From the NCBI RefSeq assembly GCF_002854065.1, contig NZ_CP024152.1: a stretch of DNA of 64,000 bases. One strand, 5' to 3'. Both the position numbers and the translations under genes were made by a program. How positions within the stretch are numbered: position 1 is the first letter of the stretch; the number at the start of each line of letters is the position of its first letter. This stretch comes from Escherichia coli (GTDB lineage Bacteria; Pseudomonadota; Gammaproteobacteria; Enterobacterales; Enterobacteriaceae). The notes beneath the pieces were generated by a model. That model did no database searches. It was not told the origin of the DNA and worked only from the letters and a program-made list of their open reading frames with translations. Positions 74-30,850 of this stretch are shown in pieces.

Positions 74-1228
74 ATGCCGTCTCCACGCATCCGTAAAATG
101 TCCCTGTCACGCGCACTGGATAAGTACCTGAAAACAGTTTCTGTTCACAAGAAAGGGCATCAACAGGAGTTTTACCGGAGCAATGTTATCAAGCGATATC
201 CCATTGCCCTTCGGAATATGGACGAAATAACAACCGTTGATATTGCTACATACAGAGACGTTCGTTTAGCAGAAATCAACCCCCGAACGGGTAAAGCCAT
301 TACAGGTAATACTGTACGTCTTGAACTCGCCCTTCTGTCATCTCTGTTCAATATTGCTCGTGTTGAATGGGGAACCTGTCGTACTAACCCGGTTGAACTG
401 GTTCGCAAGCCGAAAGTATCCTCCGGACGAGATCGTCGGCTAACGTCTTCAGAAGAACGTCGCCTTTCTCGCTATTTCCGCGAAAAAAATCTGATGTTGT
501 ATGTCATTTTCCATCTTGCCCTTGAAACAGCCATGCGGCAGGGCGAAATACTGGCCTTACGTTGGGAACACATTGATTTGCGCCACGGTGTGGCTCATTT
601 ACCTGAAACCAAAAACGGTCACTCACGGGATGTTCCTCTGTCCAGACGTGCCCGTAACTTTCTTCAGATGATGCCCGTTAATCTCCACGGCAATGTTTTT
701 GATTACACCGCATCCGGCTTTAAAAATGCCTGGAGAATAGCCACACAACGACTTCGCATCGAGGACCTGCATTTTCACGATCTACGGCATGAAGCAATAA
801 GCCGCTTCTTCGAACTGGGTAGCCTGAATGTAATGGAGATTGCTGCAATATCAGGACATCGTTCCATGAATATGCTGAAACGGTATACTCATCTTCGTGC
901 ATGGCAACTGGTCAGTAAGCTTGATGCCCGCCGGCGGCAGACACAAAAAGTGGCAGCATGGTTTGTGCCGTATCCTGCCCATATCACGACCATCGATGAA
1001 GAAAATGGGCAGAAAGCGCATCGTATTGAGATCGGTGATTTTGATAACCTTCACGTCACTGCCACAACGAAAGAGGAAGCAGTTCACCGCGCCAGTGAGG
1101 TTTTGTTGCGTACACTGGCCATTGCAGCACAGAAAGGCGAACGTGTCCCATCTCCCGGAGCGTTACCTGTTAACGACCCTGACTACATTATGATTTGCCC
1201 TCTGAACCCGGGCAGCACCCCGCTGTAA
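74..1228 (+). CDS. rci: Shufflon-specific tyrosine recombinase Rci (384 aa)
   Basis: ORF 17-1228; ATG at 74 preceded by GAGG. Tyrosine recombinase motifs ([16 protein letters not shown]) plus a ~110-aa C-terminal extension; position next to the sfx repeat. Confidence 0.8.
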
Positions 1229-7249: not shown

Positions 7250-7801
7250 ATGTCAGGTAAAAAAACTATCGTTACTCTGCTCCGGGTATCGCTACTGGCA
7301 TGCCCGTTACTGTTCACGACACCATCGTTTGCAATGATCGACACGCCATCCGTGAAGGTCGGCTTTTCTCCTGAAGGAAGCGCATCCGCTCTGGTGCTTG
7401 ACACAATCAACAGTGCGGAAAGCTCCATCAGGATGATGGCATATTCCTTCACCGACCCGGATGTAATGCATGCGCTGGCAAAAGCGAAAAAACGCGGAGT
7501 GGACGTCCGTATTGTTGTTGATGACAAGGGGAATACGAACCGGGCAAGTCAGGAAGCGATGAAATATATCAACCTGCTGGACATTCCTCTCCGGACTGTA
7601 GATGCCTTCCCCATCCATCACGACAAAGTCATCATTGTTGACGGAAACACGGTTGAAACTGGCTCCTATAACTTCTCTCGTGCTGCTGCACGCAAGAATT
7701 CAGAGAATGTCGTTGTGCTCAAGAATATGCCGGATGTAGCCGCACAATATCTTGAACACTGGCAGGATCGCTGGAATAAGGGTACAGACTGGAGACCCTG
7801 A
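7250..7801 (+). CDS. nuc: Nuc endonuclease, phospholipase D superfamily (183 aa)
   Basis: HxK(x)4D motif (HHDKVIIVDGNTVETGSYNFS), signal peptide, GGAG RBS before the ATG at 7250. Confidence 0.85.
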   Translation: MSGKKTIVTLLRVSLLACPLLFTTPSFAMIDTPSVKVGFSPEGSASALVLDTINSAESSIRMMAYSFTDPDVMHALAKAKKRGVDVRIVVDDKGNTNRASQEAMKYINLLDIPLRTVDAFPIHHDKVIIVDGNTVETGSYNFSRAAARKNSENVVVLKNMPDVAAQYLEHWQDRWNKGTDWRP

Positions 7802-7835
7802 CAAACATTTCTCCCCCGATTTTCTATCCCCCCAG

Positions 7836-7866
7836 CCACCCCCGGCTTTCGGCGGTGGTTTTTTTC
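7836..7866 (+). terminator. Rho-independent terminator after nuc
   Basis: GC-rich hairpin (CCACCCCCG...GGCGGTGG) followed by a T7-8 run. Confidence 0.55.
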
Positions 7867-7890
7867 CGTCTTTTTTCAGGAGAAGCACTC

Positions 7891-10800
7891 ATGCCGTCTG
7901 TATCCCGCTACCGCACCTGGCTTGCCGTGCCTGCAGATGAAATAGAAGATCTCAAAAAAGCACATCCCCCGATGAACGGGCACACGCCCGTCATCTGGGA
8001 CAAGGAGCACAAACTCTGGTTCGCCCGCCCGGGGGCGGACCTGTCCAGGCTGGACCGCTGGCTGCCCCGGCCACAGGACGTCTCCATGAACGGCAGTGAT
8101 CCGGTCACCGAGTTTGCCCAGGTTCTGGAGAATGCCGGACTGGTTCTGAAAGAACTGCCGGTCATGGACGGGAAAATCCACCGTGTCCCGACCGCCGATG
8201 ACAAAAAAGGACAAAAAAGTGGCGCATATCGCGGATTCCTGGACGGCAGACCTGCCGGCTGGTACAGGGATTATCGCAGCGCGGATAATTCGCCGATCAC
8301 CTGGACCTTCTCCGGCGGAGAACAGACAGATCCCCGCGCAAGACTCCACCTGAAAGCGCATTCAATGCAACGCAGGGAGGACGCGGAGCGGGAACTGAAA
8401 GCACAGTACAACCGACAGGCCGCGTATGCCCGCCGCTATATCAACAAATGGCCGCAGGCCACAGCACATGAATACCTGACCCGGAAAGGCATTCAGGCTG
8501 CACCGGGGGTGCGGGTAAACAACAAAAATGAACTGGTTATTCCCTTCAGTAACCGTAACGGCGCGATACGCTCTTACCAGCGTATTCCGGTCACCGGGGG
8601 GAAAGATGCCCGCATCCTGATAGATTCGGAGAAAACCGGTAACTGGTTTGCGCTGGGCACACCGCGCAACGGTCAGCCGGTACTGTTTGCCGAGGGCTAT
8701 GCCACTGCGGCCTCCCTGCACGAAGCCACGGGCCTTCCGGTACTGATGACGGTGGATGGAGGCAACATGATTGCCGTTGCCGAAAATGCCCGGCAAAAGT
8801 GGACGCAAAGCCCCTTTATCTTCTGTGCCGACAACGATCATGCAATCCGGGTTAACAAAGGTATCGTCAGTGCAACAAAAGCCGCAGAACTGACAGGAGG
8901 ATCGGTCATCTTTCCTGCGTTCACCGATGCCGAAAAAGCGCAGGGGCTGACCGATTTCAATGACCTGGACGCAAGCCGGGGACGGGCCGCTTTTCAGCAT
9001 GTCATCAACGCCCAGTTAGAACACATCGGGGTTTCCACCCCCAACAGTAACACCCCGGAAATGCGCGAGGCACTGGTGATAGGCAACCTCGTTTTTACAC
9101 CGGTCCACACTGAGGAAAAAACCATGACTCCGACAGAATATCCTGAAACATCACCCGATACAGGGCACAGCCATGACCAGGGACCTTCTCTGCCGTCCGC
9201 CACGCAGCAGGAACAACCAGCTGCTTCCAGCAGTAACATTGCTGATGAAACACAGTCATTTACCAGTCACGCCACTGAAAATAACGGCAAAGATGAGCGG
9301 CACGCTGATAACGTTCAGGCGCAAACGGAAAGCTCTGTAGTTCAGGACTCCCCTGCAGAATCACTGGCGTCCCCGGAAAGTACAACGGCGTCTGCCCCTG
9401 ATGAACCCGCTCATCCGGCGGAACCTCCGGAAAAAGTTGTCTCGGTGGCCACAGATAAAGACTGGCGTGAATTTGAAGCTGAACTGTCACAACCGGAAAA
9501 AAACGAGTCACAACAGGAATCCGGCACTTCACCTGAAATACCGGCCCCTGCTGCCACCACCGCATCCCCTGAAGACAGTCCCTCATCTGAAACCATGAAT
9601 GAATCAGCCGAGCCATCACCTTCCCCTGATGCAGTCAAAGAGGAAATGACCGCGATGACGGAGCCTGATGACAAACAAAGCACCGGAATATCCCCGGATA
9701 CTCCCCGGGAAGAGGCGGTCAACCATGTAACTGAAGACATTCCCCTTCAGCCAGAGCCGTTCCTTCCTGAGTCAGATGGTCCCGAAGAATACGAAAACTA
9801 CAGCGCATATCAGGAGCTGATGAACAATGAAAATCCTGAGCATCTGCAGGAAAACAGTGATATGCCGTCGCAACCGGACACAGGCCACGTTCAGGCTGAT
9901 GAGTCAGAACTTCAGGCCACAACAGATACAGTAGAACCGGCTGTCCGGGATGACCCCACTCCACAGCAACCTGTTCAGAGCACATCATCTTCTGATAATA
10001 CTTCATCGTTTCTCGACAAAGCGCGTGGCTTTTTTACGCGTAAAAAAACGGATTCACAGGCGCATGAGAACAGTGATCCCACACCCTCACCGGAAACCAC
10101 GACGACCACACCGGCACCTGACAGTATTGTCTACGCCCCGGAACGCCCTGATGCACCGATATCGCTCAATCTGGACGAAATCATTAAATCGCTGGAAGGT
10201 GAAGAACGAGCAGACAGAACCGTCCTGTACAAACTGGATGGCAAACCTGCCTTCATTGACCGGGTAAACCGGCTGGAAATGGTCAACGGTGCCAGCAATG
10301 ACGATCGCAGTGTTCTGGCTGCACTTGCTGTGGCCACTGATTTTTATGGTGGTGTCATTGAGCTGACGGGCAGTGATGCCTTTAAGCAAAAAGCGATGCA
10401 GTTGATCATCGAGCACAACATCAAAGTGCGCATGAAATTCCCGGATCAGCGAGCGGCGCTCGAAAAATTACGCAAGGAAATGGCTGTCGGTAAGGATACT
10501 GTTGTCACCCATAAGCCAACACCGGAACTTAACCGGAATACCCCTGAACAACCAGCAGTCCCAGACCCTGTTCAGGAAAAAGAAGCCACACAATCCCCGG
10601 CGTCCCCAGTAGCCCCTGAAGCATCAACCGTCAGCACCGTCCCTGCATCATCACCGGCTGAACCTGGCAAAACGGCAGATGCGGCACAAGGTGAAGAACC
10701 ACCAGGAAAACTTCGCCCGGGAGAGAGCGTGACTGCCGTACTGCACAATTTTGGTCGTGCTGAATATGCACCCGGCAAAGGAGAGAGTTTCTTTGTTGAG

Positions 10801-11658
10801 CTTAAAAACCGCAGTGGCAGCAAACTCTACTGGGGGGAACAACTGGAAAGTCTGGTCAAAAACCATCAGAAAGGTGACGTGGTGACACTGACACTTCAGA
10901 ACCGCGAACAATTCATCCTCCCGGGAGAGCAAAAAGCACGTTTCCGGAATAAGTGGTCCATGGAGTCAGTTACCAACGGGATCTCGGTATCACATGATAA
11001 TCCGGATAAAGGTCAGCGTATTCAGGCGATTCCGGTCGAAACCTTTATGAAAGTGGCTGCGCAAATCAGCCAGGGGTGGCCCGAAGAGATGAAAGCGTTA
11101 CGTATGCCAGAAAACGTCGGCTCACATCTGTTTATCGGTGAAGACCGACATCCGGTCTCCGCGCCACAGAACGCAAATCAGGTAACAGAAATAACCAGCG
11201 CAGCCCCTGACAAGCTGACACCTGTTCTGGGATCAGTGGATAAGGATACGCGTGAACTCAACCTGCTACTTGTCCAGAGTGCCGATGAACATCTGCAGGG
11301 TGTGGTCCGGCTGAACGGCACATTGTATCCGGCACTGGCCACCCCATCAGCCGACAACAGTCAGCTGGTTATCAATGCGCTGACCGACAAAGGTTTACGC
11401 TTTGCAGGTTATGGTGAAGCGGTAAACCACGATGCTGACAGCACGAATCGCCCTGCACCGGAGCTTATGCAGTTTCATCTGAAAACCCGGGAAGAACCGC
11501 TTTTTGCTGCTGTCTACACGCCGGAAAAACAACCTGATGCGTTGTACCGGAACCTGGGCTTCGAGCAGTCATGGCAGCAGTGGTCCAACAGCCAAAAGCC
11601 GGAGGACAGGCAGGAAAAAACTCTGCATCAGGATCTCTCCCACAGCCCCGGCCGATGA
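7891..11658 (+). CDS. sogL: Sog DNA primase, long form (1255 aa)
   Basis: 1255-codon ORF from the ATG at 7891 (GGAG RBS); N-terminal primase-like domain; long acidic Pro/Ser/Thr/Glu-rich linker; size and position match IncI1 sog. Confidence 0.8.
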   Translation: MPSVSRYRTWLAVPADEIEDLKKAHPPMNGHTPVIWDKEHKLWFARPGADLSRLDRWLPRPQDVSMNGSDPVTEFAQVLENAGLVLKELPVMDGKIHRVPTADDKKGQKSGAYRGFLDGRPAGWYRDYRSADNSPITWTFSGGEQTDPRARLHLKAHSMQRREDAERELKAQYNRQAAYARRYINKWPQATAHEYLTRKGIQAAPGVRVNNKNELVIPFSNRNGAIRSYQRIPVTGGKDARILIDSEKTGNWFALGTPRNGQPVLFAEGYATAASLHEATGLPVLMTVDGGNMIAVAENARQKWTQSPFIFCADNDHAIRVNKGIVSATKAAELTGGSVIFPAFTDAEKAQGLTDFNDLDASRGRAAFQHVINAQLEHIGVSTPNSNTPEMREALVIGNLVFTPVHTEEKTMTPTEYPETSPDTGHSHDQGPSLPSATQQEQPAASSSNIADETQSFTSHATENNGKDERHADNVQAQTESSVVQDSPAESLASPESTTASAPDEPAHPAEPPEKVVSVATDKDWREFEAELSQPEKNESQQESGTSPEIPAPAATTASPEDSPSSETMNESAEPSPSPDAVKEEMTAMTEPDDKQSTGISPDTPREEAVNHVTEDIPLQPEPFLPESDGPEEYENYSAYQELMNNENPEHLQENSDMPSQPDTGHVQADESELQATTDTVEPAVRDDPTPQQPVQSTSSSDNTSSFLDKARGFFTRKKTDSQAHENSDPTPSPETTTTTPAPDSIVYAPERPDAPISLNLDEIIKSLEGEERADRTVLYKLDGKPAFIDRVNRLEMVNGASNDDRSVLAALAVATDFYGGVIELTGSDAFKQKAMQLIIEHNIKVRMKFPDQRAALEKLRKEMAVGKDTVVTHKPTPELNRNTPEQPAVPDPVQEKEATQSPASPVAPEASTVSTVPASSPAEPGKTADAAQGEEPPGKLRPGESVTAVLHNFGRAEYAPGKGESFFVELKNRSGSKLYWGEQLESLVKNHQKGDVVTLTLQNREQFILPGEQKARFRNKWSMESVTNGISVSHDNPDKGQRIQAIPVETFMKVAAQISQGWPEEMKALRMPENVGSHLFIGEDRHPVSAPQNANQVTEITSAAPDKLTPVLGSVDKDTRELNLLLVQSADEHLQGVVRLNGTLYPALATPSADNSQLVINALTDKGLRFAGYGEAVNHDADSTNRPAPELMQFHLKTREEPLFAAVYTPEKQPDALYRNLGFEQSWQQWSNSQKPEDRQEKTLHQDLSHSPGR
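9124..11658 (+). CDS. sogS: Candidate in-frame internal initiation product of sog (SogS-like)
   Basis: In-frame ATG at 9124 preceded by GAGGAAAAAACC. IncI1 sog is known to give two products by in-frame reinitiation; the exact start is not verifiable here. Confidence 0.35.
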   Translation: MTPTEYPETSPDTGHSHDQGPSLPSATQQEQPAASSSNIADETQSFTSHATENNGKDERHADNVQAQTESSVVQDSPAESLASPESTTASAPDEPAHPAEPPEKVVSVATDKDWREFEAELSQPEKNESQQESGTSPEIPAPAATTASPEDSPSSETMNESAEPSPSPDAVKEEMTAMTEPDDKQSTGISPDTPREEAVNHVTEDIPLQPEPFLPESDGPEEYENYSAYQELMNNENPEHLQENSDMPSQPDTGHVQADESELQATTDTVEPAVRDDPTPQQPVQSTSSSDNTSSFLDKARGFFTRKKTDSQAHENSDPTPSPETTTTTPAPDSIVYAPERPDAPISLNLDEIIKSLEGEERADRTVLYKLDGKPAFIDRVNRLEMVNGASNDDRSVLAALAVATDFYGGVIELTGSDAFKQKAMQLIIEHNIKVRMKFPDQRAALEKLRKEMAVGKDTVVTHKPTPELNRNTPEQPAVPDPVQEKEATQSPASPVAPEASTVSTVPASSPAEPGKTADAAQGEEPPGKLRPGESVTAVLHNFGRAEYAPGKGESFFVELKNRSGSKLYWGEQLESLVKNHQKGDVVTLTLQNREQFILPGEQKARFRNKWSMESVTNGISVSHDNPDKGQRIQAIPVETFMKVAAQISQGWPEEMKALRMPENVGSHLFIGEDRHPVSAPQNANQVTEITSAAPDKLTPVLGSVDKDTRELNLLLVQSADEHLQGVVRLNGTLYPALATPSADNSQLVINALTDKGLRFAGYGEAVNHDADSTNRPAPELMQFHLKTREEPLFAAVYTPEKQPDALYRNLGFEQSWQQWSNSQKPEDRQEKTLHQDLSHSPGR

Positions 11659-11675
11659 GCCGGTAAGGAAGCCAT

Positions 11676-12023
11676 ATGAACATGCATAAGTCTCTGGTTG
11701 CCGTGCTCGGCCTTATCCTGATTTCATCCACGGCAAGTGCTGCAACCTGTCGTGCGGGTAGCGCGGCACAGGCCGGTAGTAATACAGGATATGAGCGAGC
11801 ACGTGCAGCTGCGGATGCATGGTCACAACGTGAAAACGATGTTTCCTCATCCCTGCAGTCCTGTCTGTCACGAATCAAAAAAATCAGCATAAACCTCCCC
11901 CAGTTCCCCAGCCTTGACGACATTCTGTCGCAGCTGGAAAACCAGGTCTGCGACGCGGTCGTGGACAAGGTGAATGAAAAGCTGCCGGGGAATATTGATC
12001 CCTGGAAGGACTACAACCTATGA
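11676..12023 (+). CDS. traL: TraL, exported small protein (115 aa)
   Basis: Signal peptide; RBS AAGGAAG; order matches R64. Confidence 0.6.
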   Translation: MNMHKSLVAVLGLILISSTASAATCRAGSAAQAGSNTGYERARAAADAWSQRENDVSSSLQSCLSRIKKISINLPQFPSLDDILSQLENQVCDAVVDKVNEKLPGNIDPWKDYNL

Positions 12024-29641: not shown

Positions 29642-30850
29642 ATGTCTTACAATCGACAGCCTGTCGCAGAAGATCCTATGCAGATATGGGGCGCTGTTGG
29701 TGTCCTTCTTATCCTGCTGCTGTTCGTCATATGGTTATTCTTGCCGGAAGTGGTTTACACCAGCTGCCTGATTCTTCATACCTTATGGGGACTGGTCGAC
29801 TGGGGACCATTTCATAACTATGCAGCACCACGATACAACCTGCTTGCCATGACCGGTAACAACGCCGCCAACATAAGCTATAGCCAGTGGGTTAACGTCA
29901 TGGAACAGACCATAGGTATTCTGTGGATGTACCTCTTACCTGTGACACTCTGGTGTTTGTGGGAATGGTATCAACATCCGGGACAAAGCCGTTTCACCCG
30001 CAGACCAGTAGATATTACCCGACTGCCACACATCTTTGCTTCGTTATCCCCTGCTATCGCCCCTGTACTGGCAGATGGTGATCCGAAAAAACTCTTTCAT
30101 GGTGGTAAACGACCTGAACGGCGGGTTGCTCTCACCCCGGAAGCATTTGTCGAACAGCATACTCTCATCACCAATATGCAGCTCGATGTTGCAGCTGCAA
30201 GACGATGTTTCATGGCCCAGTTGGGTAAACCTTTAACGTCCTGGAAAGACATGGCACCACATGAAAAAGCGCTCTTTGCCATATTTGGCCTTCAGTATTT
30301 CCTGGATGATCGGAAGGCAGCATTAAAGCTCATGGATACACTGAACCTCTCATGCAGAATTAAAAGCAAACGGGACAGCGGGAAATTCTGTACCCCTGTT
30401 TATTCACTGGCCAAATCAGCTTTCCAGAGAGTGATTAAAAGCAACGGAGCACAGCAATGGCTGAAACAACATCGCTACGTCCGCAGTGGGCTGGTCTGGC
30501 TGTATGCACATGACCTGCGGCTTACGCCACCCAACTGGATTTGGCTGAAAGGCGTGGACAGAACGCTGTTTTATGCATTACACCGCGCCAATACCACGAA
30601 AGGATTTATTGAAGGCGCTGGCGTGGTGGCCGTTGCACGTGCAGAGGCCGAAGCCATGCGTTTTGGTCTTCCCTGCCCTGAACCCTGTGTTGATGAAGCG
30701 GTGGAAGGCTTACGGCGGGATATGCTCAGTCTCGGTCTTATCTGGGATGAACCACAACCAGATCGCGACCGGAAACGCCGCATCCTGACCAACTGGTCCC
30801 TCACCGACGACATCCTGCCCCGCACACCTGCTACAGACAACGAATTCTGA
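29642..30850 (+). CDS. trbA: TrbA membrane protein (402 aa)
   Basis: GGAG RBS; N-terminal TM helices; size and position match R64 trbA. Confidence 0.65.
   Translation: MSYNRQPVAEDPMQIWGAVGVLLILLLFVIWLFLPEVVYTSCLILHTLWGLVDWGPFHNYAAPRYNLLAMTGNNAANISYSQWVNVMEQTIGILWMYLLPVTLWCLWEWYQHPGQSRFTRRPVDITRLPHIFASLSPAIAPVLADGDPKKLFHGGKRPERRVALTPEAFVEQHTLITNMQLDVAAARRCFMAQLGKPLTSWKDMAPHEKALFAIFGLQYFLDDRKAALKLMDTLNLSCRIKSKRDSGKFCTPVYSLAKSAFQRVIKSNGAQQWLKQHRYVRSGLVWLYAHDLRLTPPNWIWLKGVDRTLFYALHRANTTKGFIEGAGVVAVARAEAEAMRFGLPCPEPCVDEAVEGLRRDMLSLGLIWDEPQPDRDRKRRILTNWSLTDDILPRTPATDNEF

Follow-up and report, generated by a model that had tools for sequence, protein, structure and literature searches.

[quoted passage not shown] The published annotation assigns 1255 aa to SogL and 844 aa to SogS (PMC6112013), and a re-annotation of pESBL has the same 411-codon offset between the two forms (PMC4288162). 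Sog is exported in hundreds of copies and independently of DNA (PMC8406263), and its coating of the transferred strand has been a matter of speculation (PMC6112013). In a TnSeq study of pESBL, 100% of the SogS part was classed as 'required for transfer' and 26% of SogL as non-essential (PMC4288162); a 'limited segment' of sog is needed for conjugation, according to secondary citations.

The primase Pri of the IncL/M plasmid pCTX-M3 (1070 aa, with a putative short form of 689 aa) likewise combines a Toprim primase, a variable segment and a Sog-like C-terminal module. Like sog, its gene lies in an MPF_I transfer cluster, and its authors noted a potential second in-frame product (PMC6112013). Nevertheless, Pri and Sog share only about 30% identity, the linker of Pri is shorter, and its short product is putative only; moreover, deletion of pri abolishes transfer, whereas deletion of the whole of sog from R64 is reported to lower it only about 10-fold (PMC6112013). 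More distant Pri-like homologs share with Sog a Met at the primase/linker boundary and an acidic linker. TraC of the IncP plasmid RP4 is also made as two in-frame products. TraC1 and TraC2 resemble Sog as conjugative plasmid primases that are transferred to recipients (PMC5512222; PMC7213743), but the architecture is reversed, with a C-terminal Toprim and an N-terminal ArdC-N/DUF1738 domain; LPD7 is absent and secretion is of type IVA.

The sog locus and its products

We analyzed a 64-kb stretch of DNA, hereafter the window, the whole of which is IncI1 plasmid transfer region. Its gene order, traI-traJ-traK-nuc-sog-traL-traM-traN-traO, is the same as in the annotated loci of R64, ColIb-P9, and pS124. 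The sog gene shows 100% DNA identity to NZ_CP075376; megablast returned 1317 plasmid records covering at least 80% of the query, and identity was 100-95% to more than 1300 IncI1/I-gamma plasmids. Homolog P0001, which represents 10386 member sequences, is 98% identical to the window Sog. The proteins of the window, R64, and ColIb-P9 all have 1255 aa, and codon alignments gave a dN of 0-0.005 in each segment against ColIb-P9 and of 0-0.06 per segment against R64. Judged by its sequence, the window gene is the known Sog, in an allele nearest that of ColIb-P9 and with no substantive difference: gene, products, and synteny are those of R64 and ColIb-P9, and the start codon of SogS and its Shine-Dalgarno (SD) sequence (ctgaggaaaaaaccATG) are identical in both. 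We hold with high confidence that the account given here of the identity and anatomy of the sog region is the best explanation overall. The gene, its two products, and its internal start are long-established knowledge on IncI1 plasmids, and nothing in the locus is categorically new.

The open reading frame found mechanically opens at GTG 7855, upstream of the annotated ATG. The Pfam scan was run on this GTG-started frame, so its residue coordinates equal the SogL numbering used in Table 1 plus 12. In the primase half, Toprim_3 scored 23.9 bits, slightly below the Pfam cutoff of 27.2, and the EGYATA motif can be read straight from the translation, inside FAEGYATAASL. According to the title of Strack et al. 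(1992), this motif reportedly defines the family. Residues 1-411 have a calculated mass of 45.6 kDa, and the primase is basic (pI 9.1). Downstream of the acidic region, the LPD7 block has an invariant length of 115 aa in all aligned homologs and is followed by a second disordered segment of 52-95 aa among homologs. For the C-terminal module the best Foldseek matches are OB-fold ssDNA binders; the assignment of the predicted model to this fold is weak and tentative.

Table 1. Features of the sog locus (residues in SogL numbering, positions in the window)
Feature	SogL residues	Positions	Strand	Remarks
sogL CDS		7891..11658	+	1255 aa + stop; annotated ATG 7891, AGGAG at 7878-7882
DUF5710 domain	8-59	7912..8067	+	Pfam PF18974, E 1.3e-8
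Toprim primase core	266-365	8686..8985	+	Pfam Toprim_3; EGYATA motif in LFAEGYATAASL
SD-like GAGG		9112..9115	+	8 nt before ATG 9124; anti-SD duplex -6.1 kcal/mol
SogS start codon ATG		9124..9126	+	in frame; codon 412 from ATG 7891, 424 from GTG 7855
sogS CDS		9124..11658	+	844 aa + stop, nested in frame inside sogL
Acidic region, predicted intrinsically disordered	412-757	9124..10161	+	composition, net charge, pLDDT
Aromatic-acidic island DKDWREFEAEL	522-532	9454..9486	+	AlphaFold2 helix at SogS 114-119
Aromatic-acidic island EEYENYSAYQELM	632-644	9784..9822	+	AlphaFold2 helix at SogS 226-234
Basic patch SSFLDKARGFFTRKK, sole one in linker	705-719	10003..10047	+	predicted amphipathic helix
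LPD7 domain, folded	758-868	10162..10494	+	Pfam PF18821, E 4.4e-14; pLDDT 86-93
Second disordered segment, Pro/Ser/Thr/Ala-rich	869-936	10495..10698	+	pLDDT <50
Beta-rich C-terminal module	937-1245	10699..11625	+	predicted small beta-barrels

The internal start of SogS

As the published lengths differ by 411 codons (1255-844), SogS starts at codon 412, which is position 9124 of the window; this start is already known from the published annotation. The initial annotation had proposed an in-frame internal start at this ATG, an SD-like sequence upstream of it, and the production of a shorter Sog by internal initiation. All three points hold: the codon lies in the frame of sog, a GAGG precedes it (Table 1), and the published lengths of the two forms agree with internal initiation, as does the pESBL offset. 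The GAGG consists of the Glu codon GAG at -4 and the G of the next codon, and it opens GAGGAAAAAACC, which covers 9112-9123 directly ahead of the ATG. A candidate -1 frameshift heptamer in the A-run of GAGGAAAAAACC was rejected after inspection by eye, its phase being wrong. A search of 7600-11800 found no sigma70-like promoter for sogS inside sog.

An SD-like core is not unique to this position, as 7 of the 23 in-frame ATGs have one. Of the 39 in-frame ATG, GTG, and TTG codons, however, only three, at 7891, 9124, and 9655, have both weakly structured mRNA around them and an anti-SD duplex at least as strong as -5 kcal/mol. In five alleles the mRNA around 9124 is among the least structured 1-6% of the gene's windows, with MFE z-scores of +1.5 to +2.2. 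An ATG is kept at the aligned position in IncI1, IncI-gamma, IncB/O, IncK2/Z, and in the lineages of P0006 and P0009, and the I-complex lineage with Val at this position uses GTG there. SD-like purines lie upstream of the start in all the I-complex lineages examined and in four of the six distant homologs read as DNA, and of 10 lineages examined at the DNA level, 8 have GAG as codon -4. Moreover, a Met falls inside the 38-aa window at the primase/linker boundary in 33 of the 36 distant homologs (52% expected, p = 4e-7), and 22 of these 33 have a Glu at -4 or -3 of it, compared with 11% of the other Mets of the same proteins (p = 6e-13); both p-values overstate the evidence, because the 36 homologs share phylogeny and are not independent. 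The two-product design, with a start exactly at the primase/linker boundary, appears to be conserved across the Sog/Pri family of MPF_I plasmids.

We consider it extremely unlikely that SogS begins at another in-frame codon, such as 9655 (Met589), or is released from SogL by proteolysis in its exposed linker. Codon 9655 likewise pairs an SD-like GAGG with weak local structure, and long disordered linkers are generally protease-sensitive; however, Met589 is unconserved even in the 77%-identical P0006, the conservation statistics favor the boundary Met, and the published 844 aa is exactly the distance from 9124 to the stop. The two Sog polypeptides reportedly had sizes of 210 and 160 kDa in the work of Merryweather et al. 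in 1986, a difference of about 50 kDa that agrees with the 45.6 kDa computed for the first 411 residues.

We are nearly certain that the region under study is the 5' part of sogS, with its own GAGG/ATG start at 9124, encoding a predicted disordered polyanionic arm that is a linker in SogL. Ribosomes would start independently at this ATG, using the GAGG in unusually unstructured mRNA, and the 844-aa SogS would be made alongside the 1255-aa SogL. The primase domain ends exactly where SogS begins, so the ~346 N-terminal residues of the short form would be the disordered arm; in SogL the same residues would connect the primase to LPD7 and the beta-barrel module. Because the internal start invariably falls at the linker's N-terminal edge, the short, transfer-essential product never lacks the linker.

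Composition and evolution of the acidic region

SogL 412-757 (~346 residues) is thus a linker in the long form and an N-terminal arm in the short one. The initial annotation had described here a stretch of ~350 residues, ending at 10170, enriched in Pro, Ser, Thr, Glu, Asp, and Gln and with little predicted structure between the primase and the C-terminal domain. The enrichment was confirmed, these six residues making up 59-66% of 100-aa windows of SogL ~400-770 against a mean of 34% +/- 5% (maximum 53%) in the other ORFs of at least 200 aa in the 64 kb; 37 of the 40 most extreme windows across the 64 kb fall in sog. The core of the region (SogL 412-745, 334 aa) has 70 D+E versus 15 K+R, a net charge of -55 and a pI of 4.05, and the linker contains 21% D+E (NCPR, -0.165), 43% P/S/T/Q, and 12.9% ILVMFWYC. 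Its TOP-IDP index is 0.21-0.41, as opposed to 0.0-0.2 in the folded parts. In agreement with the earlier description, the AlphaFold2 model of SogS, built on a 20-sequence alignment, gives a pLDDT of about 29-48 over SogS 1-346, with just three short helices, and the end given there lies at most three codons from the disorder-to-fold boundary that we found. With no stable predicted fold, low hydrophobicity, high charge, and abundant proline, SogL 412-757 has the predicted properties of an intrinsically disordered region. Its nucleotide composition shows only C>G and A>T skews, as expected from the codon content. A literature search for a disordered Sog linker found nothing relevant, and no experiment on the linker itself was found in the accessible literature.

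The three helices fall in two aromatic-acidic islands and a basic patch (Table 1). The island DKDWREFEAEL resembles DDWSAFAEDL of IncB/O/K/Z linkers, and the motif [DEN]x[WY]xA[FY]xE of the second island, EEYENYSAYQELM, occurs in most lineages but is missing from the shortest (IncB/O/K/Z) linkers. The helix predicted in the basic patch (SogS 296-305) is the only part of the linker with a pLDDT of at least 50, and the patch can be aligned in IncI1, P0006, P0009, and IncB/O/K/Z.

Alignment of the window Sog with 26 homologs (n = 27) located all length variation in the two segments of low complexity. The folded blocks measure 398-405, 115, and 315 aa throughout, the exception being one variant without 50 aa of the primase block. 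The linker measures 166-462 aa in close homologs (60 distinct linkers) and 43-727 aa in distant ones. All 60 distinct close linkers are net negative, with an NCPR of -0.12 to -0.17 and just 4-7% K+R. The linkers of the distant full-length homologs (108-727 aa) exceed both flanks in negative charge in all 36 cases, the mean NCPR being -0.127 against -0.009 and -0.012. Some of the longest linkers (>460 aa), which have an NCPR of -0.04 to -0.12 and less P/S/T/Q, probably contain extra folded domains. We estimated a dN/dS of 0.30-0.43 for the linker, 0.12-0.14 for the primase (divergent pairs), 0.19-0.20 for LPD7, and 0-0.16 for the C-terminal module.

Between IncI1 and IncB/O/K/Z no linker sequence is alignable beyond small islands. 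The IncB/O/K/Z linker consists of one to four copies of a ~50-aa module that is found in that lineage only, and a search of the IncI1 linker found no noteworthy DNA repeats, tandem or direct, that could have given rise to differences in length. The linker evolves by indels and repeats, with composition rather than sequence kept. Among IncI1-type plasmids, 1326 of 1339 (99%) retain it at full length; in rare natural in-frame deletions (P0003, P0004), 112-168 aa are missing, and all three helical islands with them. Given these deletions and the absence of the motif from the shortest linkers, no specific element of the linker appears indispensable.

Possible roles of the arm

An arm that is always negative between neutral flanks, free to vary in length and sequence, and set off by a start at its very edge points to selection on charge and disorder. 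It is probable that bulk negative charge and disorder, and not sequence or length, are what is selected, and that in function the arm is part of the C-terminal (SogS) transfer unit and not of the primase. What the arm does is a more tentative matter. By analogy, our preferred explanation, plausible although we would not call it likely, is that it acts as a flexible polyanionic cis-competitor and solubilizer, like the acidic tails of SSB, T4 gp32, and T7 gp2.5. Acidic tails of the SSB type compete for the binding cleft with ssDNA and also serve to recruit partner proteins. The likeness is functional only: these tails and the Sog arm are disordered, acidic, and aromatic and are attached to OB-type domains (predicted, in Sog), but the tails are C-terminal, of 10-60 aa and with a conserved tip, whereas the arm, with its ~340 aa, is N-terminal in SogS and internal in SogL and lacks a conserved tip.

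As a cis-competitor, the arm would cover the surfaces with which the C-terminal module and, in SogL, the basic primase bind nucleic acids. Sog would thereby stay soluble, free of DNA, and largely unfolded in the donor, ready for mass type IVB export. In SogL the arm could in addition join the primase, like a long leash, to the DNA-binding module on the incoming strand, and the three short helical islands may be motifs for protein contacts. The role of flexible tether suggested in the initial annotation is possible for SogL only, because in SogS the arm is N-terminal and has nothing upstream to hold. The small effect reported for deletion of the whole of sog from R64 (only about 10-fold), the range of linker lengths (43-727 aa), and the rare natural deletions count against our explanation of the region as a whole.

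Among the carriers of ESBL and carbapenemase genes, plasmids of the IncI complex and of IncL/M are prominent. Since the TnSeq data make the SogS part necessary for the transfer of such resistance plasmids, the role of its arm would illuminate the selection of protein cargo by type IVB systems. Whether the arm is an export signal, a regulator of DNA binding, or a mere spacer is a question of specialist interest, and settling it would be a modest advance.

It is rather unlikely that the linker serves as a passive spacer, without any property under selection, which drifts in length and sequence by slippage and module duplication and is tolerated between independently folding domains. Its extreme length range among close and distant homologs, the lack of alignable sequence between IncI1 and IncB/O/K/Z apart from the small islands, the modular build of the latter, a dN/dS two to three times that of the folded domains, and the natural in-frame deletions would all suit such a spacer. 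However, drift does not readily account for a negative charge in every close (60/60) and distant (36/36) linker next to neutral flanks, for the scarcity of K+R in the close ones, or for a dN/dS still well under 1; moreover, the full-length linker is retained in 99% of IncI1-type plasmids and the internal start always leaves the whole segment in the short product. A second alternative, which we regard as unlikely, is that the type IVB coupling complex recruits Sog by its acidic arm, which would be a much enlarged, internal equivalent of the E-block and would be bound by TrbA, the DotM homolog. Such a signal would explain why the two Sog forms, each of which contains the arm, are exported abundantly and independently of DNA (PMC8406263). 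The IncI1 transfer system is of the MPF_I, Dot/Icm-like type, TrbA (window 29642-30850) matches solved DotM structures (E 2e-8 to 5e-7), and its cytoplasmic part is basic (39 K+R versus 28 D+E, pI 9.6). DotM binds low-pI, acidic, Glu-rich peptides (PMC5802825), and with its pI of 4.05 and 21% D+E the arm is of this kind; like the Glu-rich/E-block signals of Legionella Dot/Icm, it is an acidic, Ser/Glu-rich disordered peptide in a type IVB substrate. Nevertheless, known E-block signals are C-terminal and of about 25 aa, lying in the last ~30 residues of the substrate, whereas the arm occupies SogS 1-346 of 844 and is more than 10 times larger. Peptide binding by DotM requires R196, R197, R217, R314, and R315 (PMC5802825); in TrbA the positions of R196, R197, R217, and R315 are D, V, D, and T, and only the equivalent of R314 is kept, and with four of the five arginines not conserved we keep TrbA as receptor at a low probability. 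A more specific proposal, which seems to us improbable, is that the basic cytoplasmic domain of TrbA, within a TrbA-TrbC coupling complex, reads the arm as an acidic recruitment element that is internal and can expand. If true, the arm would represent, on conjugative plasmids, the ancestor or counterpart of the E-block signal of Legionella, and the family-wide internal start would exist for a bulk export unit (arm, LPD7, and beta-barrels) without the primase.

The initial annotation had also raised the possibility of a DNA mimic. Ocr and ArdA are folded proteins with carboxylates fixed in DNA-like geometry. They and the Sog arm are strongly negative and are delivered to, or act early in, the recipient, but the predicted disorder of the arm (pLDDT 29-48) contradicts a mimic in this folded, rigid sense. 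We regard it as very unlikely that the arm is a polyanionic decoy in the recipient that titrates restriction enzymes, nucleases, or other DNA-binding defense proteins. Its dense negative charge would suit a decoy, many copies of Sog are delivered to recipients (PMC8406263), and Sog-type primases have been grouped with the early-acting 'polyvalent proteins' of conjugative elements (PMC5512222). On the other hand, the segment is predicted to be fully disordered, with neither sequence nor length conserved and no folded scaffold, ardA and ardB are already present as dedicated genes on I-complex plasmids (PMC10286972), and no anti-restriction phenotype of sog was found in the literature examined. 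A looser role as polyanion or ssDNA competitor would fit the strict conservation of negative charge.

Finally, the homolog searches raised two candidates for a Sog without the primase. P0124, a putative 'SogS-only' homolog, was rejected as a truncation at a contig edge. P0141 is a genuine primase-less Sog homolog, with conserved synteny.

The sog gene and its internal start

The 64 kb of the window make up the transfer region of a conjugative plasmid of the IncI1 type. Its genes traI, traJ, traK, nuc, a large ORF, traL, traM, traN and traO follow the order annotated in R64, ColIb-P9 and pS124; the large ORF is called sogL there. This 3.8-kb ORF is 100% identical to one PLSDB plasmid, and over at least 80% of its length it had matches in 1317 plasmid records, the majority of them conjugative MPF_I plasmids from Escherichia, Salmonella and Shigella. 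A mechanical ORF list begins it at GTG 7855 and the annotation at ATG 7891, which is preceded by AGGAG and gives 1255 aa. Pfam assigned DUF5710, a borderline Toprim_3 and LPD7 to the product, and we read the EGYATA primase motif in its translation.

In a study of the IncM system, sog is described as encoding SogL (1255 aa) and SogS (844 aa), the latter through translational reinitiation within the reading frame (PMC6112013). The difference of 411 codons places the SogS start at codon 412, that is, at 9124, and a sogS feature was added at the same offset, after R64, in the TnSeq study of pESBL (PMC4288162). The internal start at 9124 is thus the already known SogS start. The initial annotation, whose coordinates were accurate, had proposed internal initiation at an in-frame ATG at this position, which is borne out by the frame, by a GAGG at 9112-9115, 8 nt upstream, and by the published length. 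An SD followed by an ATG is by itself no distinguishing mark, as some SD-like core was present at 7 of the 23 in-frame ATGs of sog. When SD pairing energy and local mRNA structure were considered, three of 39 in-frame start-type codons stood out: the sogL start, 9124 and 9655. Apart from the starts of sogL and sogS, both filters were passed by the ATG at 9655-9657 (SogL Met589) alone, which has an SD-like GAGG (duplex −6.0 kcal/mol) and little mRNA structure around it (MFE −7.8); its use is improbable, since Met589 is not kept in P0006, a 77%-identical homolog. No sigma70-like promoter was found inside sog, which fits the translation of both products from one mRNA. The calculated masses of SogL and SogS are 137.7 and 92.1 kDa (difference, 45.6 kDa), while the apparent sizes of the two forms are reportedly ~210 and ~160 kDa in the older literature. 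The ~50 kDa gap fits residues 1-411, and the large excess of apparent mass common to both forms would be expected from an acidic disordered segment on SDS gels.

Of the 120 database sequences closest to Sog (1087-1405 aa), most have Met at the position aligned to Met412, and one IncB/O/K-like group has Val; a representative of that group (locus L008) carries GTG, likewise a start codon. The upstream sequences were all purine-rich and SD-like: ctGAGGaaaaaaccATG in IncI1, R64 and ColIb-P9, GAGGaaaaaaatATG in P0006, tctGAGGAGcaaatcATG in the homolog P0009, and gatGAGaagccacaaATG in IncB/O and IncK2/Z. In five diverged alleles, the 60 nt centred on the SogS start were within the 1-6% least structured of the gene (z +1.5 to +2.2). 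The C-terminal module was searched against 1.8 billion cluster representatives, which yielded 36 distant full-length homologs with both a Sog-like primase and this module (28-66% identity, mostly 30-37%). A Met was present in the 38 residues around the primase end in 33 of them, against 52% expected (p = 4e-7), and 22 of these 33 boundary Mets had Glu at −4 or −3, compared to 11% of the remaining Mets of these proteins (p = 6e-13), although both p-values are only indicative, as the homologs are not independent. Six distant homologs were read as DNA, all in traJ/icmT-pri-x-dotI clusters; four had GAGGA, GGAG or AGGAG at 7-9 nt and the remaining two weak purine runs. A GAG codon at −4 was found in eight of ten lineages read as DNA. 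The boundary Met, the Glu/GAG signature and the SD-like DNA of the distant homologs suggest that the two-product design is a feature of the whole family; a second product had previously been raised merely as a possibility, for IncM Pri (PMC6112013).

Composition and evolution of the acidic linker

The initial annotation had described ~350 residues rich in Pro, Ser, Thr, Glu, Asp and Gln, and this was strongly confirmed: these residues make up 59-66% of 100-aa windows over SogL ~400-770, against a mean of 34% ± 5% (maximum 53%) in the other long ORFs, and 37 of the 40 most extreme composition windows of the 64 kb fall in sog. SogL 412-745 holds 70 acidic versus 15 basic residues (net −55, pI 4.05), between a basic primase part (pI 9.1) and a near-neutral C-terminal half. 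An AlphaFold2 model of SogS, obtained from a 20-sequence alignment, bore out the predicted disorder (Table). Within the long disordered region, just three short helices were predicted, and they coincide with the only semi-conserved islands of the alignment. Far from being conserved as a folded domain, this region has low pLDDT and is essentially unalignable between lineages. The acidic disordered linker is a genuine feature of a well-known protein.

Table. Predicted segments of Sog and other-frame ORFs over the linker
Feature	Window (strand)	SogL	SogS	pLDDT
Disordered linker		412-757	1-346	29-48
Helix island DKDWREFEAEL		522-532		
Helix island EEYENYSAYQELM		632-644		
Helix island SSFLDKARGFFTRKK, the linker's single basic patch		705-719		
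LPD7 domain, folded		758-868	347-457	~90
Second disordered stretch, Pro/Ser/Thr/Ala-rich, between LPD7 and beta-rich module	10495-10698	869-936	458-525	<50
Beta-rich module		937-1245	526-834	78-94
Other-frame ORF	9260-9619 (−)			
Other-frame ORF	9411-9740 (−)			
Other-frame ORF	9719-10006 (−)			
Other-frame ORF	9950-10267 (+, other frame)			

When the window Sog was aligned with 26 homologs, differences in length lay almost entirely in the linker segment (187-483 aa) and the second stretch (52-95 aa), both of low complexity. The other blocks kept their size: 398-405 aa in the primase (except for one variant lacking 50 aa), 115 aa in LPD7 and 315 aa at the C-terminus. In IncB/O/K/Z plasmids (loci L004-L008; homologs P0015, P0014, P0057 and P0048) the linker consists of one to four diverged copies of a ~50-aa module, NADATV..TAETxSPSEPAExQPVxQATxEPTAEDKPQEE, whose copy number gives rise to size classes of 1154, 1266, 1343 and 1405 aa. 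Repeats were also looked for in the IncI1 linker, and none were found. All 60 distinct linkers (166-462 aa) contain 18-21% D+E and 4-7% K+R, and their net charge per residue lies between −0.12 and −0.17. Every one of the 36 distant homologs has a linker (108-727 aa) whose charge is more negative than that of either flank (means −0.127 vs −0.009 and −0.012). Among IncI1 alleles, dN/dS was 0.30-0.43 for the linker, 0.19-0.20 for LPD7 and 0-0.16 for the C-terminal module, and 0.12-0.14 for the primase of divergent pairs, so that constraint on the linker is relaxed but still purifying. The linker is full-length in 1326 of 1339 IncI1-type plasmids. The rare IncI1 variants P0003 (1143 aa) and P0004 (1087 aa), each represented by one database sequence on only one or two contigs of 68-80 kb, have clean in-frame linker deletions of 112 and 168 aa, respectively, with all three helical islands gone. 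Such a pattern is typical of disordered regions that are functional and under selection for bulk properties.

Possible roles of the acidic arm

In essentially every lineage the SogS start lies at the N-terminal edge of the acidic region, so the short product always has the whole arm. A pure tether from primase to C-terminus would serve no purpose in SogS, so the arm makes more sense as a component of the SogS unit. Conjugation depends on this unit: by TnSeq of pESBL, the SogS portion was 100% 'required for transfer', while 26% of SogL, its N-terminal share, was non-essential (PMC4288162), and an IncB/O plasmid likewise needs sogLS (PMC10286972). A primase-less homolog is found at the same locus of one metagenomic plasmid (P0141, 857 aa; L024:3001-5574). 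In P0141 the N-terminus is acidic and LPD7 and the C-terminal module are preceded by an unrelated segment. Its gene lies between icmT and traL in the order traJ, PLD nuclease, icmT, P0141, traL, dotI, and with this shared synteny the plasmid looks like a natural SogS-only case. P0124 was considered as a second primase-less homolog and rejected as a contig-edge truncation. The comparative results are useful refinements rather than a discovery, namely a family-wide boundary start with a Glu/GAG footprint, a linker conserved in charge but free in length, and the assignment of that linker to the short product.

We tentatively prefer a putative role of the arm as a polyanionic, flexible cis-competitor and solubiliser, which would keep DNA-binding surfaces free and Sog export-competent in the donor, and which in SogL could double as a leash. 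The conservation of charge contradicts a passive spacer, a reading we consider doubtful. The initial annotation had also raised DNA mimicry, but a putative decoy of this kind in the recipient is very improbable, as the characterised DNA mimics are, to our knowledge, folded proteins. Moreover, I-complex plasmids already carry ardA and ardB (PMC10286972). The arm might instead be a putative recruitment element for the TrbA/DotM coupling protein: TrbA (29642-30850, +) matches the solved Legionella DotM (IcmP) structures (E 2e-8 to 5e-7) and has a basic cytoplasmic part (residues 150-402, pI 9.6), and DotM binds acidic Glu-rich peptides (PMC5802825). However, only one of the five DotM arginines that bind Glu-rich effector peptides is conserved in TrbA, the other four are not, and the arm is in the wrong position for a classical signal, which makes recruitment unlikely.

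Allele mosaicism and minor features of the locus

Synonymous divergence was compared along sog between the window (7891-11658) and R64 (L002), L001 and L012-L016. Against R64, dS was highest in LPD7 (0.32), followed by the second low-complexity stretch (0.18), the linker (0.04), the C-terminal module (0.03) and the primase (0.01), a mosaic that indicates recombination between the sog alleles of IncI1/I-gamma plasmids. When L004-L008 were set against window 7300-7801, these IncB/O and IncK2/Z loci proved to lack nuc, the phospholipase-D family nuclease gene that IncI1 has between traK and sog; sog there directly follows traK/icmT. The linker DNA is stop-poor and biased, with C over G and A over T, and the other-frame ORFs of 95-119 aa (Table) are probably by-products of this composition rather than genes. 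Between 7600 and 11800 we counted 13 terminator-like matches (hairpin plus T-run), 11 of them on the minus strand, against 5.4 ± 2.2 in shuffled sequences, an excess that may be a composition effect.
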